Shown here piece after piece: positions 15,613 to 30,670 of a stretch of 59,093 bases of DNA; positions within the stretch are counted from its first letter, which is position 1, and the number at the start of each line of letters is the position of its first letter. Under the pieces are notes generated by a model. The model saw nothing but the letters and a program-made list of their open reading frames with translations, had not been told where the DNA came from and made no database searches. The translations under genes and the position numbers were made by a program. The stretch comes from Bacilli bacterium (GTDB lineage Bacteria > Bacillota_I > Bacilli_A > RF39 > UBA660): positions 71,267-130,359 of the forward strand of contig JAFWGF010000049.1 in the NCBI GenBank assembly GCA_017512495.1, read 5' to 3'.

Positions 15613-16479
15613 GTGAATAACAATGATTTAAATAATACTAATGCTATTCCAGAAATAGGAGAAGAGAAACCAGCTGTAGATAGTTCTATGCTTGTATCTG
15701 ATCCGACAGCTGTAAGTGAAACTCCAACTACGTCAGAAGCTCCTGCAGCACCTATTGCACCAACTGTTCCAACTAGTGAACCAGTTAGCGCTGAACAAAA
15801 CACAAGTTCTGCTCCAGTTACTAATAGAATGGAAGCTCCTGGAGTTATTGGAAATATTGGGCCTAATAAAGAAGATCCAAATGCAATGGTAAATGAAGAT
15901 TTAAATAAAGTGGAAATTAATTATACACCGCCAAGTAAAGGTAAAGTAGTTGCCTTAATACTGTTCTTCTTGTTTTTAATCGCTTTTATAATTTTCTTAC
16001 CACAGATAACTACTATGGTTGATATGTATAAGGCTGGTCAAATTGAACAAGCAAATGAAAAAATAGTAGATGGTAGATTAATTTGTACTTATGATACAAA
16101 TACAACTAATTTAGATAAAGGATATCGTCTAGTCTTTTCGTTTACTGGTAATAAACTAGAAAAATTAGATTATATGGTTACTACTAAAGGAGATCCAACA
16201 TTAGATGCTAGTACAATGGATGATTTAGCAGAGCGTTGTAAGAAATTAAAAGAAACTACTGAAGGTATAAATGGAATAAATGTAAGTTGTGATTATTCTG
16301 AAGGTAAGTTGATTGAAAAACAAGGATTTACTTATGCTGAGATTGATGCTGAACAGCTAGATTCAGCATATTCAGAAGCAGGGGGAACATATCCTCAATA
16401 TACTAATGGTCAAGACATGGACTCAATAGAAACAGGTATGAATGCTTCAGGATATACGTGTAAACGAGAAAGAAATTAA
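15613..16479 (+). CDS. Membrane-anchored hypothetical protein; disordered N-terminus, TM helix, C-terminal DUF1307/YehR-like domain
   Basis: Pro/Ala/Thr-rich N-terminus, TM at aa ~112-132, C-terminal alpha/beta domain ending in GYTC; family call is by resemblance only. Confidence 0.5.
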   Translation: MNNNDLNNTNAIPEIGEEKPAVDSSMLVSDPTAVSETPTTSEAPAAPIAPTVPTSEPVSAEQNTSSAPVTNRMEAPGVIGNIGPNKEDPNAMVNEDLNKVEINYTPPSKGKVVALILFFLFLIAFIIFLPQITTMVDMYKAGQIEQANEKIVDGRLICTYDTNTTNLDKGYRLVFSFTGNKLEKLDYMVTTKGDPTLDASTMDDLAERCKKLKETTEGINGINVSCDYSEGKLIEKQGFTYAEIDAEQLDSAYSEAGGTYPQYTNGQDMDSIETGMNASGYTCKRERN

Positions 16480-16485
16480 TATTGT

Positions 16486-16528
16486 AAACTCCTCGGATTA
16501 ATGATAAAATCATTATACGAGGAGTTTT
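16486..16528 (+). promoter_or_regulatory. Terminator-like hairpin containing the downstream RBS and an extended -10
   Basis: AAACTCCTCG pairs with CGAGGAGTTT; inner TAATGAT/ATCATTA stem; TGaTAAAAT at 16502-16510. Confidence 0.6.
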
Positions 16529-16531
16529 GTT

Positions 16532-17173
16532 ATGAAAAAATTTTATATTACAATTAATATATTTTTAGTAATCGCAATTATGACTTCTTTATTTGTACAA
16601 CCAGAACATAATAATATTTCAACAAAGCATCTTTCTAGAAGCCTTGATACAGCAAGTTTTAAAAAACTTAATTTTAGAAAGACTGAACTACCTGAAGTAG
16701 AAGAAAAGAAAGATGGAGAAAAGGAAATAGATAAAGATAAACCAACTAATAACATTACAGAATCTGTTGCTAAAGTAGAAAACACAGTATCAAATAATGT
16801 TGCAGAAGCAAGTGTTGTTACTGATGTGTTAGAAAGACAAGTAGGACCTATGTCTGCCTACGGCCCTGATTGCGTTGGATGTAGTGGTCATTTAGCAACT
16901 GGTTTTGATGCAAGACAAAGTATTGAATATCAAGATCCAACCTACGGTAGTGTTAGAATAGTTGCAGGAGATAGAAAATATCCTTTTGGAACTATAGTTA
17001 GAATAAGTGGAACTAGACTAGGAACATTTAATGCTATAGTTTTAGATCGTGGTGGAAATATTGGTATTGGAAAAAGGTTTATGTTTGATTTACTTTGCCA
17101 TAATGAAAGCGAAGCTTCAGGGGTAGGAAGTTTTCAAAATGTAACATTTGAAATACTAAGATATGGTTACTAA
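16532..17173 (+). CDS. 3D-domain (MltA-like) cell-wall protein with N-terminal anchor
   Basis: IVAGDRKYPFGT, VLDRGGNI and FDLL give the three conserved Asp of the 3D domain. Confidence 0.8.
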   Translation: MKKFYITINIFLVIAIMTSLFVQPEHNNISTKHLSRSLDTASFKKLNFRKTELPEVEEKKDGEKEIDKDKPTNNITESVAKVENTVSNNVAEASVVTDVLERQVGPMSAYGPDCVGCSGHLATGFDARQSIEYQDPTYGSVRIVAGDRKYPFGTIVRISGTRLGTFNAIVLDRGGNIGIGKRFMFDLLCHNESEASGVGSFQNVTFEILRYGY

Positions 17174-17182
17174 TTTAATGAT

Positions 17183-17215
17183 AAAAAGTAGTGAGAAATA
17201 GCACTACTTTTTTTT
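17183..17215 (+). terminator. Intrinsic terminator
   Basis: AAAAAGTAGTG-AGAAATAG-CACTACTTTTT followed by a T run. Confidence 0.8.
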
Positions 17216-17294
17216 GATTTTTTAAGCATATGCAATTGTAATGAAATACTTTCCGTGATATAATAATTGTTATAATAGGATGTATGGTGATAAT

Positions 17295-20200
17295 ATGAAG
17301 AATAAAAGAAAAGGAAATAAAGGTTTTACATTAATTGAGCTTTTAGCATCAATAGTATTACTAGGAATATTATTTGTTTTTGCCATTCCAACAATAGTTG
17401 GTGTAGTAGAAAGGAATAGAGATAAGATTTATGTAAGTGATGTTAGAAAATTAATGTCACAGGCAGAACATAAGTTGAAGGCATCTAGTACTATTATGGA
17501 AAAACCAGAACCGGGAGATTGTATTGTCATCAGTTTAGTTTATTTGGATAGTGAAGACTTTGACCAAGCTCCAAATGATGGAGAATACATTAAAGAAGCT
17601 TCATTTGTTGTTGTAAAAAATAATGGGGGAAAATTAGAGTACTCAGGAGCTATTGTAGAAAAAACAAAAGCCGGAGGATATAGAGGTATTGAATTAACAA
17701 AGGAAGATTTACTAAAGCAATCAAATGCTGTTAGATTTGTTAAAAATATTTCAGAAAACAATATAATAAAAGTTAACGATCCGCATGTTATAATGTCAAA
17801 TTATATTAATTCAACATTAAAAGAACAAAATGATGGTGTAGACTATGTTAAAACTGTTAGTAATATTTATAACCAGCCAAGTTTAGAGGACCAATCATCA
17901 TCTGGAGAAACACTTCCTCCAGTTATCACTAAAGCAACCTTAACATCAACTTCTGGTAAAAATTATAACTCACTAGATGCTACACTTAACTTAACTGTTA
18001 CTGATAGAGATAATCCAACAAATCAACTTTTAGTAGGTCTTTCAACATCTAGTTATACTGATGCATTGAATGGTGAAAAACTACCATATGGTGAAGAAAA
18101 CACTTTTACTAAAACTTATGAGTTCGATAAAATGGGTTATGGCTATTTAGGTAATAATCAAGTTAATTTATATATTGTAGTAATTGATCCTGAAAAAAAT
18201 AGAGTTCAAACAAACATTAGTTATAAATTGCATAAAAATGAACCTCCTGTAATTGGAGAAGGATCTAAATTAGTAAGAAGAGCAGAAGATCCAGTAAATA
18301 AAGGGACAGCTATACTAAAATTGGATTTATCAGATGATATTGATTCAACTAATGCTTTAAAAGTATGCTATACAGCAAATACTAATGCAAATAGTTGTAA
18401 TAATTATGTATCTTACAGAGACATGGTGCGTGATGATGTTTATATCGAATTTGATACAGCACAATGTAATTTAACCGGTCAAGAATATAAATTGAAAGTC
18501 TTTGTAGCAGATAGTAGTAATGAGATAAGTTCAAAGGTATTAACATATAAAGTTCATAATGATGGTAATCCTTCTTTTGATCCAAATAAAAAACAAGTTG
18601 ATGTTGTTACTGCAGAAACTGGATATAACAGTTTAAATGTTAAAGTGTTTGTAAATGGATCTGATGATGTTACTCCTAATTCTAATTTAAGAGTTAGAAT
18701 AGTTGAAGGTAATACTGATCAAATATATCGATATGATGCAAATGGAATACCGTTTAGATTAAGTGGTCATTATGATGGTCAAAAGAGAACATTAAAAGTT
18801 ACTTTAATTGATGAATGTAATCATTATTCAAATACTGTAACTTATTCAGACTATACTGTTTATAAAAATATTCCACCACAAATAGACAGTATATCTATTA
18901 TGAGTAATGGATATGCTTGTAATAATAGTGATGAATGTCCTATCGTAAATAATAATGGAACTGTTACAAGTGGTGGAAATGCTAAAGCAAGTGTTTATAT
19001 TAATATTTTAGACGATTTAGATAGTGATGATTTATATAATAATATAAAAGTTTGTATTTCAGAAAATAGAGCAAACTGTAATAATGAAGCTAATTTCAAG
19101 CCTTATTCGGAATATGCTACAGGTACTATCTTTACTTTTGATGCGGGCAATGCTACTCCATATAATGGTAGTACTAAAACACTCTATGTTGTTTCAAAGG
19201 ACTCTGAAGGTGCCATTAGCGAAAGTTCAAAAAGATATACACTCTATAAGAATAAAGCTCCAGAAATTACTGGATTTGATGTTCACTCTGAAGATAGGCC
19301 ATTTGTTAGTACCGATAATAATAGTTTGAATCTTACTTTCTTCCTTCAAGCAGATGATGACATTTTAGATTTAAATGATTTACAATATACAATCCAAACT
19401 CAAGGAAGTAGCGAAGTAGTAGAAAAGAAAAGTCTTGCTGAATATGATGAAACTAAAGGATTAAAATATCATGTAGCAGGTACATATGATGGTGGAGAAA
19501 GAACTATTGTCTTAAAAGTTTATGATAATTATTCAGCAGGTTCTGAGCCATCTACTCAAAAATACAAAGTTTATAAAAATAAACCACCAGAGATTTCTTT
19601 GTTAAAGACAGAAATAGATGAACAAACTGGTGAAGAAGTTCAAGTAAGTGTTGAAAATGAAATAGATATAGTCCAAAGTTCTGAATGTTTATCAAGTTAT
19701 AAGTGTCCTTATTTAGCTGAAGATGCTAATGGTAAAGGACAAAAAGTCAGTGTAATATTTGAAGCTACTGATGACATTGATGGAGTAGCAGGTATAGAAG
19801 AAGATGATGGATTAGAACAAGGAGAAATGACAGTATGTGTATCTGAAACTGAAGCAGATTGTACTGCTGCAAATTCTACACATTATGTGCCTTATAAACA
19901 ATTTGTTGAAGAAGAAAGAGAATATATATTTAATAAAGGTATGACTAATCCATATAAGTCTCAATATAAAAATAAAACATTATATGTTTATTTAAGAGAT
20001 TCAGGAGGTTTAACTACACATGTTAGTAAACCATATACGCTATATACAGCAAGTGCTCCTAAATTCATAGATGAGGAAGTTGACGCAGTAACTCAGCACG
20101 TAACAAAATATCCAAATATTACTCCAGTTGGAATAGACCAAGTAGATGAGTCTTCGGGAATTGTTGTTAATGGTAGAACTGCATTATACAATATGCTAGT

Positions 20201-21476
20201 TGTAGATGATTTTGAAGATTCTATAAATTTAGAAACTAGTATTTGTTATAAAAAAGTCGATAGTGAAGATGAATGTAGTTGGAGTGCGTATAAACCATAT
20301 GAAGATACTGTTGAAATAAATTTTGATGATACCAACAGTTACAACGGTGAAGAATATGAAATATATGCTAGGGTTAGAAATTCTTTAGGCATAGTTGCTA
20401 CAACATCTACACCATTGAAATATAAGGTTTATAAAGATGACAAACCAAGAATCTTATCTATAGCAGCCAGTTATGAAAATGCAACTCATGTAGATACAGA
20501 TCCACCAGCTTCTAATAATGGATCTTTATTGGGATCATGGGAAACATATAATAGTGATACCATGTTTAGAATTAGTATTATAGCTGAAGACTTCTTTGAT
20601 TCATATAAGGTATGTGTTAGTAAAGATCCTAACGGAGCAGATTGTACAGATGATAAATATCTAGGAAAACAGGATGGAACTCTTTATAGTGGAACAGATG
20701 TTGATTCAATACTATTCTATTATAATGAACCAGATGGACTAAAGTCTCATACCGATGCAGAGATAGGTTTTGAGGTACTAGTAGATGATTATTATTTATT
20801 TGTAAAAGATTCTCATGGTAATGTTGCAAAATCTAGTGCTTTTTATGCTTCAGAATTCAATGAGTGTGATGAAAAAAGGCCAAAACCTTCAGTAACAACA
20901 TATGAGCATTCAAGTGGTTCAACAATTAGTACAGCAGCTTGTCGTGGACAATGCTACTATTCAGAAACTGCAACAGATACTAGTGAATGTAAAATGCCTG
21001 GTGAATCAACTCCAGAAGGTGAAGAAGAAAAAGAAGAATGTGATTTATCAGAATTTATTGAAAAAACATCAGAAATAGTAGGAAACTATAAAAAGAAACT
21101 TACATATAATGATAGTTTTACCAATGCAGTGTGTACTCCTCCAACAGAAGAAGATTATACAGCAAATTGTTCATTTAAACAGTGTTTTTATAATAAGAGT
21201 ACTCAACCATATAATGTTAAAGCCATTGGTTTAAGGAAAAAAACATTCCCTAGAGGTGCTTCTGAAATGGTTAACGTTATAGTAAGCGGAGAAACTATAT
21301 CAATAAATAGTTATGAATACTATACTGTTTATACAGTTACTTATGATGGTGTCTCTGAATCAGTAGATTTACATCCAACACCTGAATATGTTTTCCCAGA
21401 AGAATATAATTTAAATCCAGATAAATACAAATATAAATCAAGTGATGATGTTCCATACATCAGAGTAATGGATTAA
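17295..21476 (+). CDS. Giant type IV prepilin-like protein (1393 aa) with about 8 Ig/cadherin-like repeats and Cys-rich C-terminus
   Basis: Likely start ATG 17295; class III signal KG|FTLIE with hydrophobic helix; recurring Y[KT][LV][YH]KNxxP linkers and DDxD motifs. Confidence 0.8.
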   Translation: MKNKRKGNKGFTLIELLASIVLLGILFVFAIPTIVGVVERNRDKIYVSDVRKLMSQAEHKLKASSTIMEKPEPGDCIVISLVYLDSEDFDQAPNDGEYIKEASFVVVKNNGGKLEYSGAIVEKTKAGGYRGIELTKEDLLKQSNAVRFVKNISENNIIKVNDPHVIMSNYINSTLKEQNDGVDYVKTVSNIYNQPSLEDQSSSGETLPPVITKATLTSTSGKNYNSLDATLNLTVTDRDNPTNQLLVGLSTSSYTDALNGEKLPYGEENTFTKTYEFDKMGYGYLGNNQVNLYIVVIDPEKNRVQTNISYKLHKNEPPVIGEGSKLVRRAEDPVNKGTAILKLDLSDDIDSTNALKVCYTANTNANSCNNYVSYRDMVRDDVYIEFDTAQCNLTGQEYKLKVFVADSSNEISSKVLTYKVHNDGNPSFDPNKKQVDVVTAETGYNSLNVKVFVNGSDDVTPNSNLRVRIVEGNTDQIYRYDANGIPFRLSGHYDGQKRTLKVTLIDECNHYSNTVTYSDYTVYKNIPPQIDSISIMSNGYACNNSDECPIVNNNGTVTSGGNAKASVYINILDDLDSDDLYNNIKVCISENRANCNNEANFKPYSEYATGTIFTFDAGNATPYNGSTKTLYVVSKDSEGAISESSKRYTLYKNKAPEITGFDVHSEDRPFVSTDNNSLNLTFFLQADDDILDLNDLQYTIQTQGSSEVVEKKSLAEYDETKGLKYHVAGTYDGGERTIVLKVYDNYSAGSEPSTQKYKVYKNKPPEISLLKTEIDEQTGEEVQVSVENEIDIVQSSECLSSYKCPYLAEDANGKGQKVSVIFEATDDIDGVAGIEEDDGLEQGEMTVCVSETEADCTAANSTHYVPYKQFVEEEREYIFNKGMTNPYKSQYKNKTLYVYLRDSGGLTTHVSKPYTLYTASAPKFIDEEVDAVTQHVTKYPNITPVGIDQVDESSGIVVNGRTALYNMLVVDDFEDSINLETSICYKKVDSEDECSWSAYKPYEDTVEINFDDTNSYNGEEYEIYARVRNSLGIVATTSTPLKYKVYKDDKPRILSIAASYENATHVDTDPPASNNGSLLGSWETYNSDTMFRISIIAEDFFDSYKVCVSKDPNGADCTDDKYLGKQDGTLYSGTDVDSILFYYNEPDGLKSHTDAEIGFEVLVDDYYLFVKDSHGNVAKSSAFYASEFNECDEKRPKPSVTTYEHSSGSTISTAACRGQCYYSETATDTSECKMPGESTPEGEEEKEECDLSEFIEKTSEIVGNYKKKLTYNDSFTNAVCTPPTEEDYTANCSFKQCFYNKSTQPYNVKAIGLRKKTFPRGASEMVNVIVSGETISINSYEYYTVYTVTYDGVSESVDLHPTPEYVFPEEYNLNPDKYKYKSSDDVPYIRVMD

Positions 21477-21489
21477 AGTTGGTGAGATA

Positions 21490-21984
21490 ATGAAAAAGAA
21501 GATTTTAGATTTTATAAAGAAAAATATTAAATTAATAATAATTGCTTTAATATTTATTTTGGGTATTGTGATAATAGTATCTGTTATAAGTATTAAATCT
21601 GATAAAGAAAAAGGATATAAGGAAGAAAATAAATATAGAATATCAGATGAGGTTGTAGAAGTTCCCGGAACTAAAATAATAACAAGCGATAGAATAAAAG
21701 AAAGACATTGCTTAAATGATATATGTGTTACTAATATGACTTTTTATACATATGGAAAAGATGGAAGAATCGAATGCACAGTTAAGAACGAAAGTGAAGA
21801 AGAAAAAAGTGGTTATATAAAGATAAAAGTTAACGGAATTAGTTTAATAGCTAATTATGATAATTTAGCTCCGGGAAAGGAATCTAAAACAGTTGCTAGA
21901 TACACAGGTGTGGAATTTACTGATATCGAAGACTACACTTTAGAAGAATTAACAAAAAAAGAAAAGAAAAACATTAGAGGATAG
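21490..21984 (+). CDS. Membrane-anchored small beta-sandwich-like protein in the pilin operon
   Basis: N-terminal TM helix; C-terminal domain CLNDIC...IEC; lies between giant pilins 1 and 2. Confidence 0.7.
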   Translation: MKKKILDFIKKNIKLIIIALIFILGIVIIVSVISIKSDKEKGYKEENKYRISDEVVEVPGTKIITSDRIKERHCLNDICVTNMTFYTYGKDGRIECTVKNESEEEKSGYIKIKVNGISLIANYDNLAPGKESKTVARYTGVEFTDIEDYTLEELTKKEKKNIRG

Positions 21985-21994
21985 GAGGTAAAGT

Positions 21995-24900
21995 ATGAAT
22001 AAAAAAGGATTCACAATGGTAGAACTTCTAGGAGCTATAGTAATATTAGGAATATTAAGTGTAATAGCAATCACAGGAGTAAGTAATTTAATACAAAAGT
22101 CAAAAGATACAGATGAAGAACAATATGAGAAGACATTAAAACAAGCAGCGCAAAGTTATATGCAGTCAAATAGAAATAAATTACCAAAAGCAATAGGAGA
22201 AAAAAGAAAGGTAACCGCAGCTGAATTAAAGGGAAATAATTACCTAAAAGAGGGAGATAAAGGCTGTGTAGAAATATATAAAAAAGATAAGAATAAATAT
22301 GTATATACAGTAAATATGGAATGTGAAGAAACTCATATTCAAGAAATATGTGAAAATTCAGGATTAGTCTTAGAGAAATTCTACTTTACAGATCATACAT
22401 TAAGTGAATTAGAAAGAGTAGATTTAGATAACTTAGAAGAAGCAAGGATGGTTATCTACTTTAAAGGTGGAACAAAAGCCGGAGAAGAATTAGCAATAGA
22501 AAGTTATTCATATTCAATATCAGTACAGACAAAGAATGATCCAAACTTACATGAAGTATATAATTCAGGATCATTAAATGGAAATGGAAATAAAGAGATA
22601 AAAATCATAAAACAAATAAGTGAATATGTACATTTATCAGGAGCAACAAATGTAGTAGTAACACTAAAAGCAAAGAATACAGAAGGATGTTCATTAAAAG
22701 AAAGTAGATCAACCAGTTATGAAGATGATGTCAAACCAATATGTACATTTATAAAAAATCAAGCAACATCAGGAAATGATTGGATAAATAAAAAAGATGG
22801 AGGAGCAACAAGAACAATAACAGCAACATGTGATGATGGATTAGGAAGTGGATGCGTAAGTCAAAATGTTTCAAGGACATGGGAAAATGATTATCAACAT
22901 GATGCAGAGTGGGCATATATTCAAGTAAAAGATAATGCAGGAAATACAAATATAGATGATGAATTTATAAAGGCAAGCCCAACAATATGTGACAAACCAA
23001 TCCAAGCAGATAATACATGTCGAGTAAGAGTAAATGTAGATAAGACACTACCAACAATAAAGGTAGTAGGAGCATATGAGAGAGCAGATGGAGCAACTGC
23101 AGCAATAAAGCAAAATGCTCCAAATATATTAAATATTAATGGATCAGGAACAATAACAATAGATAATAACAGTAATGGTGGGCAAGGAACAGGAAGCATA
23201 GCAGTAGGACAATATAAGAATTTAATAAATGACTGGATGAACTTAGTAAATTATCCATATGGAATAGCATATCAAGTAGAGATATCAGATACATTACATT
23301 TAGCAGGGTGGTCATGGAAGACAAATCAAGCAGGATTAGGACATAGAGATTCAGGATATGGAACATTAGGAAATAATGAAAGTCCAAATGGAGGAAGCTT
23401 TGCTGATCTAACAGACAATGATTGTGGAAAAAGAGATGTAGCAACAATAGTAATAGGATTCCAAAAAGAAGGAAAGAGAAAAGGAGAGTTAAAGGTATGG
23501 GATAAAGCAAACAATATAACTACCTTAACAATCTATGCAAACTTAGATAGAACTCCACCAGAAAAGCCAACAGTAACATACAAAAAGGCAAAATCAAATG
23601 CAAAATATACAGCGGGAACTGCAGTAACAAATTGGTCAACAGAATTAATAAATTCATATGTTACAGCAAAAGTAGAACCAGATATATCAGGATGGGATAG
23701 ATTCGAATATTGGTATAGAAAGCAAAATGCAGTAAATAATACCGAAGCAACAACAGCAGGAAGTTTAGCAGCAGCAATAACAGGCCAAACAAAAATGAAT
23801 AATTATCCAGATAAAATAGAAAATTTAGCTGGATATCAAATAAAAGATGAAGGAAGACACTTGTTCAAATATAATAGTTGTGATAGAGCAAGTAACTGTT
23901 CTGATTATAGTAATGAAGATACAATAAAGATAGATACAAAACCACCTGCATGTAGTAACCAAATCAGTTATCCTCACGGAAAACCAACAGATTATGGATG
24001 GTTAGGAAGACATTATGTTGCGAATGCTACGTACTATACAGAAACTAACGAAGCAAGAGGACAATATAAAGGTCACTATGTAGAAGCTGAGAATAATAGA
24101 GAAACGGCAATAGTAAAACAAGTTTGTACAGAAAATGGAACATATGGAAGTCAGTGTGATCCGGAATCAATATCTCAATTTGAATATAAGGTTCCAATTA
24201 ATACTACGGCAGCAGGAGCAGAAGGAGACGGAAAAGGAGGAACAATAAAAGATAAAGCAGGAAATGAAACAGCGTGTACACCAGATCAAACTGTAAAAAT
24301 AGACTATGCCCTTCCAAAGTGTATTGTAGAAAATGAAGCAGAATATAAAAATGACAAATGGAATTGGGCAAGAAGTAGGACAATTTATCGTAAATGTAAT
24401 GACGTTAAAAGAGATGATCATCCAAACGATACAATAAGCGGATGTCTGCCAGATCTTACTAAGGAGAGAAGTTTTGGTGGAAAAAAATCTGATGTAAACT
24501 TAAATGATAAATTAATGACAACATATACATATCAATCAGGTTATAAAATAACAGATAAAGCAGGAAACAAAAGATTCTGTTTTCCACCAACTGTAAAAGT
24601 ATATGTAGATAGAAGTGCACCAAATTGTAGTTATGACAAATCACATACATATACTACATCAGGAGTAACTATAAAATATTCATGCAATGATAAATATGGA
24701 AGTACAGCTGGTGTAGGAGTTAATACATGCCCAGGTGGAAGAGACCACACAGTAACAGAAAAGAAGAAAACTCAGACACCAAGTATGGATGATAAACTAG
24801 AAAATGATGCGACATGTACTGTTCCAGTACATAGTCAAAAACAATATAAGAAGAAAACATGTAATCAATATAAGAAATGTAAAAATTCTGCTTGTGGAAC

Positions 24901-25192
24901 AACAACAATATATGCATGTGTATGTAAAGGAACTGGTTGTGGTATGTGCCCTAGTGGTTATACTCATTATTCAAGTGTACCTTCTGGATGTGGAACATAT
25001 GGTTGGAGTGGTGGTATGAGTGGAACTAATGCTCATGCTCACAAAGCATGCTCTATTACTAATAGTTGTAGAACAGCAGCTTGTGGTTGTAATAGTTGGA
25101 GTGGATACTCTGGATGGTCAACAGGTAACCATTGTCCAGGATATAGTAATTCAAACTCTTGTAAACAGAAGAGTAGAACAGTTTATTACTAG
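21995..25192 (+). CDS. Giant type IV prepilin-like adhesin A (1065 aa)
   Basis: KKG|FTMVE class III signal; Ig-like repeats with DKAGN/VD-x-T-x-P motifs; 14 Cys in the last ~110 aa. Confidence 0.8.
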   Translation: MNKKGFTMVELLGAIVILGILSVIAITGVSNLIQKSKDTDEEQYEKTLKQAAQSYMQSNRNKLPKAIGEKRKVTAAELKGNNYLKEGDKGCVEIYKKDKNKYVYTVNMECEETHIQEICENSGLVLEKFYFTDHTLSELERVDLDNLEEARMVIYFKGGTKAGEELAIESYSYSISVQTKNDPNLHEVYNSGSLNGNGNKEIKIIKQISEYVHLSGATNVVVTLKAKNTEGCSLKESRSTSYEDDVKPICTFIKNQATSGNDWINKKDGGATRTITATCDDGLGSGCVSQNVSRTWENDYQHDAEWAYIQVKDNAGNTNIDDEFIKASPTICDKPIQADNTCRVRVNVDKTLPTIKVVGAYERADGATAAIKQNAPNILNINGSGTITIDNNSNGGQGTGSIAVGQYKNLINDWMNLVNYPYGIAYQVEISDTLHLAGWSWKTNQAGLGHRDSGYGTLGNNESPNGGSFADLTDNDCGKRDVATIVIGFQKEGKRKGELKVWDKANNITTLTIYANLDRTPPEKPTVTYKKAKSNAKYTAGTAVTNWSTELINSYVTAKVEPDISGWDRFEYWYRKQNAVNNTEATTAGSLAAAITGQTKMNNYPDKIENLAGYQIKDEGRHLFKYNSCDRASNCSDYSNEDTIKIDTKPPACSNQISYPHGKPTDYGWLGRHYVANATYYTETNEARGQYKGHYVEAENNRETAIVKQVCTENGTYGSQCDPESISQFEYKVPINTTAAGAEGDGKGGTIKDKAGNETACTPDQTVKIDYALPKCIVENEAEYKNDKWNWARSRTIYRKCNDVKRDDHPNDTISGCLPDLTKERSFGGKKSDVNLNDKLMTTYTYQSGYKITDKAGNKRFCFPPTVKVYVDRSAPNCSYDKSHTYTTSGVTIKYSCNDKYGSTAGVGVNTCPGGRDHTVTEKKKTQTPSMDDKLENDATCTVPVHSQKQYKKKTCNQYKKCKNSACGTTTIYACVCKGTGCGMCPSGYTHYSSVPSGCGTYGWSGGMSGTNAHAHKACSITNSCRTAACGCNSWSGYSGWSTGNHCPGYSNSNSCKQKSRTVYY

Positions 25193-25225
25193 TGAATGAA
25201 AACGTTGTAAATACTGGATATACTG

Positions 25226-25258
25226 AAAAAAACTTAGTTGTTTTAACTAAGTTTTTTT
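25226..25258 (+). terminator. Intrinsic terminator between adhesins A and B
   Basis: AAAAAAACTTAGTT-GTTTT-AACTAAGTTTTTTT, a perfect 14-bp stem. Confidence 0.85.
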
Positions 25259-25328
25259 ATTGTTAAAGAAGTAAAATAATGATATAATCAGTCTATAATA
25301 GGTATAGTGTCTTATACGGAGGTAAAGT

Positions 25329-28300
25329 ATGAATAAAAAAGGATTTACAATATTAGAACTTCTAGGAGCTATAGTAATATTAGGCATATTAAGTGTAATG
25401 GCAATTGTAGGAGTAAGTAATTTAATACAAAAGTCAAAAATGACAGATGAAGAACAATACGAAAAGACATTAAAACAAGCAGCGCAAAGTTATATGCAGT
25501 CAAATAAAAATAGATTACCAAAAGCCATAGGGGAACAAAGAATGGTAACCGCAACTGAACTGAAAGAAAATAATTATCTAAAAGAAGGAGATAAGGGTTG
25601 TGTAGAAGTATATAAAAAAGATAAGAATAAATATGTATATACAGTAAATATGGAGTGTCAAGAAAAATATATTGAAGAAATATGTAAAAATGTAGGTCCA
25701 AAGATAGAAAAAATGTACTTTACAGATCATACATTAAGTGAATTAGAAACAGTAGATTTAGATAACTTAGAAGAAGCAAGAATGTATATTTACTTTAAAG
25801 GTGGAACAAAAGCCGGAAAAGAATTAGGAATAGAAAGTTACTCATATTCAATATCAGTACAGACAAAGAATGATCCAAACTTACATGAAGTATATAATTC
25901 AGGATCATTAAATGGAAATGGAAATAAAGAGATAAAAATCATAAGAAAGATAAGTGAATATGTACATTTATCAGGGGCAACAAATGTAGTAGTAACACTA
26001 AAAGTCAAGAATACAGAAGGATGTCCATTAAAAAAGAGTATATCAACAAAATATGAAGATGATGTCAAACCAATATGTACATTTATAAAAAATCAAGCAA
26101 CATCAGGAAATGATTGGATAAATAAAAAAGACGGAGGAGCAACAAGAACAATAACAGCGACATGTGATGATGGATTAGGAAGTGGATGTGTAAGTCCAAC
26201 GTTCTCAAGGACATGGGAAAATGATTATCAACATGATGCAGAATGGGCATATATTCAAGTAAAAGATAATGCTGGAAATACAAATATAGATGATGAATTT
26301 ATAAAAGCAACACCAACACTATGTGGTAATTCAGCTCAAGTAGATAATTCATGTCGAGTAAGAGTAAATGTAGATAAGACATTACCGACAATAAAGGTAG
26401 TAGGAGCATATGAGAGAGCAAATGGAATAACAGCAACAATCAAGAAAGGTGCTCCAAATATATTAAATATAAATGGATCAGGAACAATAACAATAGATAA
26501 TAATAGTAATGGTGGACACGGAACTGGAAGCATAGCAGTAGGACAATATAAAAACCTAATAAATGACTGGATGAACTTAAAGAACTATGAATATGGAGTA
26601 GCGTATCAAGTAGAGATATCAGATACATTACATTTAGCAGGATGGTCATGGAAGACAAATCCTGGAGGAGTAAGTCATAGAGATACAGAATATGGAACAT
26701 TAGGAAATAATGAAAGTCCAAGCGGTAAAAATTATGAAGACATCCAAAATAATGATTGTGGAAAATTAAATGACACGATAATAATAGGTTTTAGTCAAGA
26801 AGGAAGAAGAAAAGGAGAGTTAAAGGTTTGGGACAAAGCAAACAATGTAACAACTTTAACAATCTATGCAAACTTAGATAGAACAGCACCAGAAAAACCG
26901 ACAGTAACATATAAAAAGGCAAAATCAAATGCTAATTATACGGCTGGTACTGCAAGAGCAAATTGGTCAACAGAGTTAATAAATTCATATGTTACAGCAA
27001 AAGTAGAACCAGATATATCAGGATGGGATAGATTCGAATATTGGTATAGAAAGCAAAATGCAGTAAATAATACTGAAGCAACAACAGCAGGAAGTTTAGC
27101 AGCAGCAATAACAGGTCAAACGAAAATGAATAATTATCCAGATAAAATAGAAAATTTAGCTGGATATCAAATAAAAGATCAAGGAAGACACTTGTTCAAA
27201 TATAATAGTTGTGATAGAGCAAGTAACTGTTCTGATTATAGTAATGAAGACACAATAAAGATAGATACAAAGCCACCAATTTGTAGTAACGAAATCAGTT
27301 ATCCAAATGGAAATCCAACAAGCTATGGATGGTTAGGAAAGCATTATGCGAACAGTACGACATATACTTCAAGTGGAAAAAATACAGCAATAGTAAAGCA
27401 AGTTTGTACAGAGGATGGAACATATGGAAGTCAATGTGATTTAGACACAATATCCCAATTTGAATATAACGTACCAATTAATACTACAGCAGCAGGAGCA
27501 GAAGGAGATGGAAAGGGAGGAACAATAGCAGACAAAGCAGGAAACGTAAAAAGTTGTACTCCTGACCAAACAGTAAGAATAGATTATCAAGAGCCAAAAT
27601 GTGTAGAAACTAATCAAGCGGAACAAAAAAGTAATGGTGACTGGATTTGGACTCGAAGTAGAACAATTTATCGAAAATGTGAAGATTATAAAGAAAAAAC
27701 TACAGACATGATAAGTGGCTGTGTACCAAAAACGGAATCTATATCTTTCGGTGGAAAAAACGCAGATGTTAATTTAAATGATAAGTTAAAAACTAATCAT
27801 ACTTTCCCAGGATTTGGAATTCAAGATAAAGCCGGAAATAGAAAACTATGTGGTGACAAGGTAGTACATGTTTATGTAGACAGAAGTGCACCAAATTGTG
27901 ATTATAAAAAGACTAATAAATATTCAAAAGAGGGAGTAACAATAGAGTATACATGTGATGATTTATATAAAGGTACTGAAGGTACAGGAGTTAAAACGTG
28001 TCCAGGAGGAAGTGACCATATTGTTACAAAAAGAACTACAACTCAGACACCAAGTATGGATGATAAACTAGAAAATGATGCAACATGTACTGTTCCAGTA
28101 TATAGTCAAAAACAATATAAGAAAAAGACAAGAACATGGAATAGCTGCAAGTATAAAAAAACAGAGTACTATGATTGTATATGGAGAGGTGGAAATAATC
28201 CATCTAATGCTACAGTTTCTACTTGTGTAGGACATGGTTCTTGTACATCAAGTAAAAGAGGAACAGTTTGTGGATCACCAAATGCTACATATGGTTGGAC

Positions 28301-28445
28301 CTGCGTATGTAGTTCTAGAAAAGTGTGTGTAGGTGATTGGAATGATTGGAGTGGCTGGTCATCAAGCTGGTCAACAGATAATCACTGTCCAAACTATAAG
28401 GATTCAAATTCTTGTGATCAAAAGAGTAGAATAGTTTATTATTAG
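25329..28445 (+). CDS. Giant type IV prepilin-like adhesin B (1038 aa), paralog of A
   Basis: KKG|FTILE class III signal; near-identical to A over ~650 aa; different 10-Cys tip; own extended -10 (TGATATAAT, ~25280). Confidence 0.8.
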   Translation: MNKKGFTILELLGAIVILGILSVMAIVGVSNLIQKSKMTDEEQYEKTLKQAAQSYMQSNKNRLPKAIGEQRMVTATELKENNYLKEGDKGCVEVYKKDKNKYVYTVNMECQEKYIEEICKNVGPKIEKMYFTDHTLSELETVDLDNLEEARMYIYFKGGTKAGKELGIESYSYSISVQTKNDPNLHEVYNSGSLNGNGNKEIKIIRKISEYVHLSGATNVVVTLKVKNTEGCPLKKSISTKYEDDVKPICTFIKNQATSGNDWINKKDGGATRTITATCDDGLGSGCVSPTFSRTWENDYQHDAEWAYIQVKDNAGNTNIDDEFIKATPTLCGNSAQVDNSCRVRVNVDKTLPTIKVVGAYERANGITATIKKGAPNILNINGSGTITIDNNSNGGHGTGSIAVGQYKNLINDWMNLKNYEYGVAYQVEISDTLHLAGWSWKTNPGGVSHRDTEYGTLGNNESPSGKNYEDIQNNDCGKLNDTIIIGFSQEGRRKGELKVWDKANNVTTLTIYANLDRTAPEKPTVTYKKAKSNANYTAGTARANWSTELINSYVTAKVEPDISGWDRFEYWYRKQNAVNNTEATTAGSLAAAITGQTKMNNYPDKIENLAGYQIKDQGRHLFKYNSCDRASNCSDYSNEDTIKIDTKPPICSNEISYPNGNPTSYGWLGKHYANSTTYTSSGKNTAIVKQVCTEDGTYGSQCDLDTISQFEYNVPINTTAAGAEGDGKGGTIADKAGNVKSCTPDQTVRIDYQEPKCVETNQAEQKSNGDWIWTRSRTIYRKCEDYKEKTTDMISGCVPKTESISFGGKNADVNLNDKLKTNHTFPGFGIQDKAGNRKLCGDKVVHVYVDRSAPNCDYKKTNKYSKEGVTIEYTCDDLYKGTEGTGVKTCPGGSDHIVTKRTTTQTPSMDDKLENDATCTVPVYSQKQYKKKTRTWNSCKYKKTEYYDCIWRGGNNPSNATVSTCVGHGSCTSSKRGTVCGSPNATYGWTCVCSSRKVCVGDWNDWSGWSSSWSTDNHCPNYKDSNSCDQKSRIVYY

Positions 28446-28448
28446 AAC

Positions 28449-28474
28449 AAAGGATACATTGAATGTATCCTTTT
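28449..28474 (+). terminator. Intrinsic terminator
   Basis: AAAGGATACA-TTGAA-TGTATCCTTT followed by T. Confidence 0.8.
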
Positions 28475-28513
28475 GATTTGATATAATATATTTGCATGAT
28501 GGAGGAATATTTT

Positions 28514-30670
28514 ATGAATGAAATGATTATTAAGGATATAGTAGAAGAATTAAATATTAGTACTAAACAAGTAGAAGCAGTATTAACTCTTTTAAGCGAA
28601 GATAATACTATACCTTTTATTGCTAGATATAGAAAAGAAGCAACTGGAGGATTAGATGAAGAAGCTATTAAAAAGATAGGTGATGTTTATGCCTATCAAG
28701 AGAGTTTATTAAAAAGAAAAGAAGATGTTATTAGACTTATTGATGAAAAAGGACTTCTTACTGATGAATTAAAAGAAGCTATTTTAAAATGTAATAAATT
28801 AGTAGAAGTAGAAGACTTATATAGACCATATAAAGAAAAGAAAAAAACTAAAGCAACAGAAGCTATTAAAGCAGGATTAGAACCATTAGCTAAAATGATA
28901 ATGTCTTTTCCAACTACTGGTAGTATAGAAGATATGGCTAAGAAGTTTTTTAATGAAACAATTAAGAATACTGATGATGCAATTACAGGGGCTAAGTATA
29001 TTATAGCTGAATGGATAAGTGATAATGCTTCGTATAGGAAATATATAAGAAGTTATTTTTATAAGAATGGAACAATTATTTCTAAAGTAAAGAAAGATGC
29101 TAAAGATGAGAATAAGATATACGAAATGTATTATGACTATAATGAAGCGGTTAAACATATTAAGCCTCATCGTATTCTTGCTTTAAATAGAGGAGAAAAT
29201 GAAAAGGTATTAAATGTAAGTATAGATGTTAATAAAGATGAGATAATTGCTTATTTAAAAAGTAGAATTATTAAAAATGATAAAAGTTTTGTAGCTAAAT
29301 ATGTTGTTGAAGCAATAGAAGATTCTTATAAAAGATTAATTGCTCCTTCAGTAGAAAGGGAAGTAAGAAGTGATTTAACAGAAAAAGCAGAAATTGCTGC
29401 TATAGAGAACTTTGGTAAGAATCTAGAAGCATTACTTTTAACTCCACCAATGAAAGAAAAAATAGTACTTGCTTTTGATCCTGGATATGTTAATGGTTGT
29501 AAGTTGGCTATTATTGATAAGACTGGTAAATATTTAGATAGCATTGTAGTTAAACCATTCTTAAAAGGACAAGAAGAAAAGAATATTAAGATGACTAAAG
29601 AAGTAGTAGCTAATTTAGTTAAAAAATATAATGTTGATATTATTGCTATAGGTAATGGTACTGCTTCTCGTGAATCAGAAAAGCTTTGTAGTGAAATGAT
29701 TAATGAATATAATTTAAATTGTAAATATGTAATAGTAAGTGAAGCAGGAGCATCTATCTATTCAGCATCTAAAGTAGCTATTGAAGAATTCCCTGATTTA
29801 GCTGTTGAAAAAAGAAGTGCTGTAAGTATAGGTAGAAGATTACAAGATCCATTAGCAGAATTAGTAAAGATACCACCAGAAGGTATAGGAGTAGGTTTAT
29901 ACCAACACGATGTAGCTGGTAAGAAATTATCTGATTCATTAGACTTTGTAGTAGAAAAATGTGTTAATAGTGTCGGAGTTAATGTTAATACGGCTAGTCC
30001 ATCTCTACTTAGTTATGTTTCTGGTATTACTAAAGCTGCGATAAAGAAGATAATTGACTATCGTGAGAAACTAGGTAGAATTAGTTCTAGAGAAGAAATA
30101 AAGAAAAAGAAATTATTATCAGATAAAGCTTATGAACAAGCAATAGGATTCTTACGTATAACAGAAGGAAGTAATGTCCTAGATTCTACTGCTATTCATC
30201 CAGAAAGCTATGATATAGCACTAAATCTATTAAAAGATTTAAATATGAATATTAGTGATATAGGTACTAAAGACTTAATAGATAAGCTAGATAATTTAAA
30301 AATAGAAGAATATGCATCTAAATTAAATACTGATATTTATACTTTAGAAGATGTAATTAGTAGTTTAAAGAAGCCTAATTTAGATCCAAGAGATGAATAT
30401 CCACAACCTATATTAAAAAGTAATATTTTAGATATTAAAGATCTTCATGTAGGTGATAAACTACAAGGTACAGTTCGTAATGTAGTAGACTTTGGTTTGT
30501 TTATAGATATTGGATTACATGATGATGGACTTGCACATATTTCAAAATTAAGTAATAATTATGTTAAACATCCTAGTGATTTATATAGTGTAGGAGACAT
30601 AGTAGATTGTTGGGTAGATGATATTTCATTAGAAAAAAACAAAGTAAGTTTAAGTTTAATAGAGAGGTAA
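28514..30670 (+). CDS. tex: Tex-family RNA-binding transcription accessory protein
   Basis: Likely start ATG 28514 (GGAGG RBS); TIPFIARYRKEATG, YqgF-like domain (AFDPG, IGNGTASRES), HhH, C-terminal S1 domain. Confidence 0.95.
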   Translation: MNEMIIKDIVEELNISTKQVEAVLTLLSEDNTIPFIARYRKEATGGLDEEAIKKIGDVYAYQESLLKRKEDVIRLIDEKGLLTDELKEAILKCNKLVEVEDLYRPYKEKKKTKATEAIKAGLEPLAKMIMSFPTTGSIEDMAKKFFNETIKNTDDAITGAKYIIAEWISDNASYRKYIRSYFYKNGTIISKVKKDAKDENKIYEMYYDYNEAVKHIKPHRILALNRGENEKVLNVSIDVNKDEIIAYLKSRIIKNDKSFVAKYVVEAIEDSYKRLIAPSVEREVRSDLTEKAEIAAIENFGKNLEALLLTPPMKEKIVLAFDPGYVNGCKLAIIDKTGKYLDSIVVKPFLKGQEEKNIKMTKEVVANLVKKYNVDIIAIGNGTASRESEKLCSEMINEYNLNCKYVIVSEAGASIYSASKVAIEEFPDLAVEKRSAVSIGRRLQDPLAELVKIPPEGIGVGLYQHDVAGKKLSDSLDFVVEKCVNSVGVNVNTASPSLLSYVSGITKAAIKKIIDYREKLGRISSREEIKKKKLLSDKAYEQAIGFLRITEGSNVLDSTAIHPESYDIALNLLKDLNMNISDIGTKDLIDKLDNLKIEEYASKLNTDIYTLEDVISSLKKPNLDPRDEYPQPILKSNILDIKDLHVGDKLQGTVRNVVDFGLFIDIGLHDDGLAHISKLSNNYVKHPSDLYSVGDIVDCWVDDISLEKNKVSLSLIER

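Follow-up and report, generated by a model that had tools for sequence, protein, structure and literature searches.

Organization of the locus

The DNA analyzed here (the window, 59,093 nucleotides of contig JAFWGF010000049.1, assembly GCA_017512495.1) lies in a metagenome-assembled genome (MAG) of a Bacilli bacterium of the lineage UBA660. This MAG comprises 1.37 Mb in 51 contigs, has a GC content of about 29% and is 86% complete. The window contains two adjacent genes on the + strand, A (21995–25192; 1065 amino acids, aa) and B (25329–28445; 1038 aa), which were found to encode paralogous, modular type IV pilins. The protein encoded by A consists of a leader, an alpha-1 helix, a pilin head, a chain of beta-sandwich domains forming a stalk and a Cys-rich tip, and B is a paralog of A with the leader MNKKG/FTILE (the slash marks the predicted cleavage site). 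The two genes are probably recombination mosaics, in which the stalk has been homogenized by ectopic gene conversion and the tips are older and different.

Based on predicted signals, the four + strand genes at the locus were divided into a three-gene unit, consisting of a gene for a 1398-aa pilin, orf164 and gene A, and a separately transcribed gene B. A promoter-like site (TTGTAA-17-TATAAT with TG; 17236–17264, + strand; detected by consensus scan only) precedes the three-gene unit, with a terminator-like hairpin upstream of it (17183–17212). The first gene of the unit (17280–21476, + strand) encodes a giant type IV pilin-like protein with a prepilin N-methylation motif, whose similarity to A and B is confined to the N-terminus. 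In another assembly (L132:2795-6987; XIEF21-1_SAMN15830039 scaffold_4556) the gene for this 1398-aa pilin was called as two frames of 681 and 716 aa, due to either a frameshift or an assembly error. The second gene, orf164 (21490–21984, + strand), encodes 164 aa with an N-terminal hydrophobic segment and has no family match; the matches obtained scored only 13–15 bits against cut-offs of 165–750 and were discarded as chance. It adjoins an A/B-type gene in sister lineages too.

Gene A is followed by a terminator-like hairpin (25226–25258, + strand) with a 13-bp A/T-rich stem, a T run and a predicted energy of -12.8 kcal/mol, and then by a promoter-like site for B (TTGTTA-17-TATAAT with TG; 25260–25288, + strand), again from a consensus scan only. 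A second terminator-like hairpin follows B (28449–28475, + strand), ahead of a promoter-like site for Tex. Both A and B are full-length open reading frames with a ribosome-binding site (RBS) each, and B has its own promoter-like site and terminator-like hairpin. The neighbors of the locus are housekeeping genes: priA, fmt, rlmN, a PP2C/PknB pair, rsgA, rpe and Tex.

Pilin features and predicted structure

The N-termini of A and B both contain a short basic leader ending in Gly, Phe at position +1, Glu at +5 and a hydrophobic stretch of approximately 20 residues. The leader of A (MNKKG/FTMVELLGAIVILGIL; MNKKG/FTMVELL, with Gly-1, Phe+1 and Glu+5) is predicted to be cleaved after Gly5, and that of B (MNKKG/FTILELL) likewise has the form of a type IV pilin leader. 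The prepilin N-methylation motif scored above the curated cut-offs in A, B and the 1398-aa protein; for PF07963 the scores were 26.1 bits for A and 24.2 bits for B (cut-off 21.2), and for TIGR02532 they were 23.1 and 19.8 bits (cut-off 16.3). Pfam and NCBIfam returned this motif alone and gave no signature for stalks or tips.

A was modeled with AlphaFold2 from an alignment of 29 sequences (mean predicted local distance difference test score, pLDDT, 79.7), which predicted an alpha-1 helix (residues 8–58), a small pilin head (strands 70–107) and a chain of beta-sandwich domains from approximately residue 125 to 955. The first 40 residues showed low pLDDT, as expected for an isolated helix, an A-specific insert (676–694) was modeled as a low-confidence loop, and the tip (957–1030) had no confident model. 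Foldseek comparison with the PDB gave generic immunoglobulin (Ig)-like domain strings only, namely the neck of the grappling-hook protein GhpA, MG domains of alpha-2-macroglobulin and RTX-adhesin extenders. Because the pilin motif and the model are combined with Ig-like domain strings, so that sequence and model give an N-terminal pilin module followed by extra modules that are not specific to type IV pili, A and B can be classified, as far as the model goes, as giant modular type IV pilins as defined by Raynaud et al. (2021; PMC8179133).

The genome encodes components of a type IV pilus machinery: a prepilin peptidase (PF01478 at C12:3566-3889), a PilB-type ATPase (PF00437 at C47:12211-13356), a second T2SSE-family gene on contig C19, a PilC-type platform protein (PF00482 twice in a 492-aa frame, C12:4249-5226), which adjoins the prepilin peptidase gene, and further small pilins on C39 (two), C21 and C19. 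These pilus genes were found dispersed among housekeeping genes (G000 contigs C12, C47, C19 and C39; loci L118, L119 and L159). On C47, a lone gene for the PilB-type ATPase lies beside tmk and lepA, and on C12 the genes for PilC and the prepilin peptidase lie near tgt/queA, ruvAB and a third, 722-aa pilin paralog. Approximately 2 kb from this third paralog, a candidate adhesin of 757 aa with a C-terminal MucBP domain (PF06458) is encoded on the - strand (L119:13525-15798).

Judged from their architecture, A and B are most likely adhesins displayed at the pilus tip, where alone a module of about 110 kDa would be expected to fit. Gene A would be co-transcribed with the 1398-aa pilin gene and orf164, and B would be expressed from its own promoter. 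With A and B transcribed separately in this way, stalks of one kind could carry either of two tip specificities in a cell.

Block structure of genes A and B

The two genes showed 83% DNA identity, and the proteins were identical at 805 of 1036 positions (77.7%, global alignment). As originally predicted, the homology starts at a shared RBS, GGAGGTAAAGTATG, which is found before both genes (21984–21997 on the + strand, including the start of A; 25318 for B), and the sequences further upstream are unrelated. The homology also stops at the stop codons. Within the genes, the predicted alternation of near-identical and divergent blocks was found at exactly the expected positions and with the expected counts of differences: 22508–22610 and 25842–25944 were identical over 103 of 103 bp, 23645–23940 and 26976–27271 differed at 5 of 296 positions, and 24770–24852 and 28041–28123 differed at 2 of 83. 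The predicted indel of about 17 aa corresponds to a 16- to 17-residue insert specific to A (approximately A 676–696).

Gene A (+ strand) can be divided into successive segments. The constant, homogenized part (21995–24226; partner in B, 25329–27506) showed 81–95% DNA identity and a synonymous divergence (dS) of 0.16–0.48, and it includes both the 103-bp block and the 296-bp block. It is followed by the distal stalk (D4b–D6a; 24227–24766; partner in B, 27507–28037), which is clearly more divergent, as had been noticed before, with approximately 69% DNA identity and dS of 0.8–1.3. Then comes the 83-bp island (24770–24852; partner in B, 28041–28123; dS about 0.13), directly before the variable Cys-rich tip (24854–25114), which shows 29% protein identity to the tip of B (28125–28367, + strand) and for which AlphaFold gives no model. 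A conserved C-terminal frame (25115–25189) lies directly after the tip. The tips had been described as completely different. In fact they could be aligned at 42–43% identity (tblastn E 1e-10 to 1e-15), with a shared frame, SQKQYKKKT ... WS..WST.NHC..Y..SNSC.QKSR.VYY, around a center of approximately 85 residues with 29% identity.

In an independent k141 assembly of the locus (L131), gene A was identical to that of the window at 648 of 648 sites informative for A versus B. Thus, the block pattern and its phasing in the window are not peculiar to one assembly.

Synonymous divergence along the genes

The analysis of synonymous sites was restricted to the 783 codons at which A and B specify an identical, degenerate amino acid; 136 of these codons differed synonymously. 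The differences were distributed heterogeneously along the genes (chi-square over 20 bins, p = 1.2e-7), and the best single breakpoint was placed at A 24227, with 12% of the conserved codons changed before it and 35% after it. Proximally, dS was 0.27 in the pilin module, 0.16 in D1, 0.38 in D2, 0.18 in D3 and 0.48 in D4a; distally, it was 1.26 in D4b–D5, 0.82 in D6a, 0.13 in the island, 1.31 in the variable tip and 0.56 in the C-terminal frame. Uniform synonymous divergence, which simple duplication plus selection on the protein would have left, was therefore not observed (range by segment, 0.13 to 1.31). Recurrent recombination that homogenizes the constant blocks, as originally proposed, is supported by these dS ranges together with the shifting quartet support described below.

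The island differed synonymously at only 2 of 26 conserved codons, compared to 40% of the remaining distal codons of this kind (binomial p = 2.4e-4, a post hoc comparison). The peptide that it encodes, TQTPSMDDKLENDATCTVPV, is not conserved in the three nearest lineages (P0003, P0004 and G001c7), and its identity in A and B is therefore attributed to recent exchange between the two genes and not to protein constraint.

A simple duplication without recombination, in which purifying selection would act on the stalk while the distal part and the tip change fast under positive selection, would agree with the highest nonsynonymous divergence (dN), which was found in the tip (dN 0.79, dN/dS 0.60) and in patches of surface loops, and with an approximately unbiased (AU) test that does not reject the A+B clade in the tip. 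However, selection on the protein leaves unexplained the eight- to ten-fold range of dS at codons with an unchanged amino acid, the low dS of an island whose peptide is unconstrained in sister lineages, and the shift in quartet support. This explanation is already disfavored by the synonymous-site tests, and we regard it as the least probable of those considered.

Comparison with related lineages

Three lineages proved to be closest: L158 (with P0003), L157 (with P0004) and G001 contig 7, whose protein corresponds to P0006 wherever the two align. All three have Tex proteins 91–92% identical to that of the window, and in each of them only one A/B-type gene lies between orf164 and Tex, which makes the tandem pair specific to the species of the window. 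In L158 (609-3740; ERZ27256838 k141_641102), a stop codon interrupts the A/B-type gene of the P0003 lineage after 67 codons (MTKKGFTMIELL...LPKRI), and two frames of 67 and 966 aa were called, which may reflect a pseudogene or a sequencing error.

In N-terminal trees (first 540 residues; residues 1–650), A and B formed a tight pair with a path of 0.14 on a stem of 0.47–0.49. For quartets of A, B, P0003 and P0004, informative sites were counted in the order A+B, A+P0003/B+P0004, A+P0004/B+P0003. The stalk gave counts of 137/12/10, compared to 10/12/8 for D5 and 13/16/4 for the variable tip, and the island gave 13/0/3. Thus, the support for grouping A with B collapses in D5 and the tip and returns in the island (Fisher's test: stalk versus D5, p = 8e-9; stalk versus tip, p = 8e-8; island versus D5 plus tip, p = 2e-3). 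In the tip, B agreed with P0004 against A at 69 sites and the reverse was seen at 29 (p = 7e-5), and in D5, A agreed with P0003 against B at 48 sites and the reverse was seen at 20 (p = 9e-4). The DNA identity of the B tip was 0.62–0.67 to P0004 and 0.44–0.46 to A. B and P0004 have the same type of tip; a second type is common to P0003 and G001c7, and A and P0005 represent a third and a fourth type, respectively.

In the wider family (P0003–P0033), the last approximately 125 residues mostly carry 7–22 cysteines, and many members end in W..W...C...R.(V/L)Y(Y/K), with hypervariable sequence between the frames. At least four tip types were found among the five closest lineages, with no Pfam or NCBIfam model and no AlphaFold fold.

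Tandem pairs were also found in other species of the genus (G004/G010, G008, G016 and G017). These were either old and long-branched or orthologous, with no recent homogenization, and the homogenization of the window pair is not part of a genus-wide pattern. The tandem pairs of G004 and G010 are orthologous, so that the duplication is older than their split. In four of the tandem giant-pilin pairs (L137–L140, from G017, G016, G004 and G010), one member each has Ala and not Gly at position -1 (e.g., KAFTLVELL).

An explanation that competes with conversion between A and B is a recent tandem duplication followed by import of divergent distal and tip segments from related strains or species, in which case the contrast between stalk and tip would not stem from A-to-B conversion. 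The single copies at the syntenic site in the three sisters, which make the pair lineage-specific, fit such a history, as do the P0004-type tip of B and the position of A nearest to P0003 in D5; moreover, the homology extends only from RBS to stop codon and B has a promoter and a terminator to itself, which is easier to reconcile with insertion or replacement of a cassette than with a plain duplication. However, the nearest possible donors are just 58–65% identical in protein, with no recent donor identified, the dS of the stalk itself spans 0.16 to 0.48, and an island with a dS of 0.13 within divergent sequence still needs exchange between A and B. We consider this explanation rather unlikely, although it and the conversion model are not mutually exclusive.

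Additional assemblies of the locus

Nine further assemblies of the locus were obtained from protein clusters and exact look-ups. The 90% protein clusters contained 7 and 6 members, all of them near-identical clones or tiny fragments, and scans of genome and metagenome contigs with A for more alleles returned only proteins with at most 56% identity.

One assembly (L042, a k141 contig from ERZ27256851) contains a single gene of 1059 aa in place of the pair, with the head of A joined to the tip of B. This gene is A-type at 468 of 468 informative sites up to 24768 and B-type at 180 of 180 sites from 24811, which places the junction within the 42-bp exact stretch of the island (24769–24810). The 6-kb flanks are 100% identical to the window. 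This fusion is harder to dismiss than the other variants, because the 42-bp junction is shorter than the long identical blocks and because an assembler working with unitigs would cross it only if there were chimeric reads or paired gaps in coverage; the chance that it is real is judged to be about even or somewhat less. The argument that the L042 sample lacks a contig joining the tip of A to the head of B, as none was present in the protein clusters, was rejected: absence from the clusters is uninformative, because the partial genes in L132 (a 430-aa B fragment) and L135 (a 218-aa A fragment) are missing there as well.

A second assembly, L038, shows the order distal A, spacer, B head (803 bp) joined to the rest of A, spacer, B, which is a reciprocal-type product in a three-copy layout. 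The contig starts inside an A/B repeat, as would be seen after mis-traversal of an assembly loop.

All 73 sites that vary among the apparent alleles of A carry the base of the paralog. In all assemblies of the series named XIEF21-1 (scaffolds), A equals B over 22508–22797 and 23645–23919. They show a/a, b/b or a mixture of single-nucleotide polymorphisms, with switches only between sites 58 bp apart and never between sites at most 48 bp apart; in the window and in L131, both of them k141 assemblies, a/b is kept. The pattern in the XIEF21-1 scaffolds is expected from bubble collapse at a k-mer size of approximately 55, and the short swaps are probably assembly artefacts. A low-coverage fragment of a truly different strain (L116, 97.8% identity to A) contains a run of eight B-type sites, which is suggestive of recombination at the level of sequence.

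L115 was initially a candidate for a variant B allele and was rejected, as its first 920 bp are unrelated, GC-rich DNA. In this contig (L115:1-920; ERZ28653876, XIEF21-1_SAMN15830039 scaffold_23893), DNA of another organism runs directly into the distal part of B at position 27802 of the window. The contig is an assembly chimera of two genomes, which calls for caution with its assembly series. More generally, tandem paralogs in public metagenome assemblies can acquire apparent gene-conversion alleles through bubble collapse and loop mis-traversal.

The original prediction had assigned to the island the role of a crossover joint for tip swapping, to be recognized by chimeric alleles. One candidate chimera, L042, does break in the island; all these assemblies, L042 included, belong to one clone, and the short swaps are artefact-like.

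Search for a programmed variation system

An analogy with the pilE/pilS system or with variation of Mycoplasma adhesins had also been proposed, together with additional silent tip cassettes carrying the 83-bp block. Searches of the 86%-complete MAG with A, B, the island and both tips (blastn with word size 9, and tblastn) showed no further copy of the island or of a tip, and hence no such cassette in the 1.37-Mb assembly. The only other paralog match was the old 722-aa gene on C12, which matched in its N-terminal half only. No guanine-quadruplex (G4) motif was present in 16001–29500 or anywhere in the genome, and neither A/T runs of at least 9 nor G/C runs of at least 6, which could serve as phase-variation tracts, were found in 16001–29500. 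With no silent cassettes, G4 motif or phase-variation tracts found in these searches, and with both genes complete and provided with expression signals, the analogy is not supported.

A programmed antigenic or tip variation system similar to pilE/pilS or the Mycoplasma MgPa repeats, using the island as a joint and generating variants within populations, would be in line with the fusion gene of L042, its junction in the 42-bp exact stretch and its identical 6-kb flanks. The reciprocal-type layout of L038, the paralog base at 73 of 73 variable sites in A, the B-type run in L116 and the tips that are hypervariable between conserved frames throughout the family could be read in the same way. Such a system is nevertheless very improbable in view of the negative searches above, in which no silent or partial cassette, G4 motif or homopolymer tract was found and both genes were complete with expression signals. 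Besides, the allele pattern of XIEF21-1 matches bubble collapse at k of approximately 55 and the k141 assemblies keep a/b, L038 starts in a repeat, L115 from the same series is chimeric and all assemblies represent one clone.

Origin of the mosaic

The regions of A and B differ in ancestry: the stalk and the island share a recent A/B ancestry, and the distal stalk and the tips have older, different ancestries. Recombination is therefore required. Ectopic gene conversion between A and B has probably homogenized the first 2.2 kb repeatedly and the 83-bp island before the tip as a separate exchange tract. The distal stalks and tips are probably of much older and differing origins, with tip types common to other species of the genus. 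The outcome would be a constant stalk bearing two different tip cassettes, in which the island and the conserved C-terminal frame provide homology on both sides of the tip. Unequal crossing-over in the island would yield a single gene with the head of A and the tip of B, as seen in one assembly. The second copy could have originated from a duplication, from an acquired gene or from an old pair that was lost by the sister lineages. The exchange looks episodic and RecA-type rather than like a programmed high-frequency switch. Two models remain, namely conversion that homogenized the stalks of two older genes, or import of divergent distal segments into a young duplicate, and the island requires exchange between A and B under both.

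Several observations weigh against the proposed mosaic origin. The synonymous heterogeneity within the proximal 2.2 kb was only marginal (p = 0.04), and permutation tests of the longest identical run (Sawyer type) were not significant within the proximal (p = 0.23) or the distal part (p = 0.16), with a weak result over the whole gene (p = 0.037). Because of the marginal heterogeneity and the non-significant run tests, the fine alternation of blocks in the proximal part could partly be due to protein constraint. On the short tip alignment, the AU test did not reject an A+B clade (p = 0.18), so that the incongruence rests on the site counts and not on a resolved tree; this alignment is also uncertain and saturated, and the asymmetries in D5 and the tip could partly result from faster change in one copy. 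All assemblies of the locus represent one clone, with 0–1 mismatches in 5–6 kb of flank, and the fusion is a single metagenome contig from this same clone, the recombinants being known as assembled sequences. Finally, the location at the pilus tip and the role in adhesion are deduced from architecture.

In a broader reading, which we put forward as speculative and hold to be unlikely, the tip adhesins of the genus would form a cassette system. The Cys-rich tip would be swapped between tandem genes and between lineages, with the island/SQKQYKK motif and the WS..WST.NHC...VYY end as recombination frames, and crossing-over in the island would make and destroy copies in living populations. The L042 fusion and the three-copy layout of L038 would then be real products, and the single-copy state of the sister lineages would be a product of such fusions.

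Under the conversion model preferred here, A and B suggest how such adhesins may diversify, with recombination keeping the stalk uniform and different tips being retained. If the fusion allele is real, one and the same clone changes its tip repertoire and its number of copies while living in the ruminant gut, which would have a bearing on attachment to host or substrate and on pressure from phages or immunity. As a gene family, giant modular pilins with an Ig-like stalk and hypervariable Cys-rich tips are a more novel element than the mosaic itself.

Comparison with known systems

In Neisseria pilE/pilS, and in Mycoplasma genitalium mgpB/mgpC with the MgPar repeats, variation draws on promoterless silent cassettes, and the initiator of the pilE/pilS type is a G4 with a small RNA promoter beside the expression locus. 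The A/B locus resembles these systems in that a surface filament or adhesin contains constant and variable regions with short conserved flanking stretches. It differs from pilE/pilS and MgPar in that neither promoterless silent cassettes nor a G4 initiator was found. Furthermore, the variable part of A and B is the whole C-terminal module of a giant pilin of minor type and not, as in pilE, the hypervariable loop of the major pilin.

Another parallel is provided by babA/babB of Helicobacter pylori, which are paralogous adhesin genes with gene conversion and chimeras; concerted evolution is also known for tufA/tufB. Like babA/babB, A and B are two full-length paralogs, both predicted to be expressed, with homogenized blocks, divergent putative ligand-binding parts and occasional candidate chimeric genes. 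Unlike babA/babB, they are adjacent and in direct orientation, so that unequal crossing-over can delete or add a copy, and the exchange is deduced from sequence.

Neisseria PilC1/PilC2 and Pseudomonas PilY1 are large modular adhesins at the pilus tip, described as consisting of a carrier and a variable effector (PMC8179133; bioRxiv 10.64898/2026.09.18.752573). With PilC1/PilC2, the A/B locus shares the presence of two paralogous copies of a modular adhesin, in our case with a putative tip location. PilC and PilY1 are non-pilins that dock on a complex of minor pilins, whereas A and B have a class III leader and thus belong to the pilins.

Among monoderm bacteria, modular type IV pilins are exemplified by those of Streptococcus sanguinis, in which PilB contains a von Willebrand factor A module and PilC a lectin module (Raynaud et al., 2021, PMC8179133; PMC9934059). 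They have been proposed to act as pilus-tip adhesins, with more than one modular pilin per system (PMC8179133; PMC9934059), and modular pilins have been proposed as a general route to add functions to pili (PMC8179133). A and B resemble PilB and PilC of S. sanguinis in having a class III signal peptide, a small pilin module and a bulky module C-terminal to it. They differ in that the extra part, of approximately 950 residues, is an Ig-like chain with a Cys-rich tip without a known domain signature. The S. sanguinis system also differs from that of the window in that the pilus genes of the latter are dispersed among housekeeping genes, and A and B are known from their genes alone. The largest modular case in the InterPro survey of PMC8179133 has 860 residues, compared to 1038–1398 aa for the pilins of the window and up to 1671 aa for open frames of relatives in the genus. 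With a length above 1,000 residues, an Ig-like stalk and a Cys-rich tip that fits no known class, A and B carry the modular-pilin idea further, into little-known gut Bacilli with small genomes.

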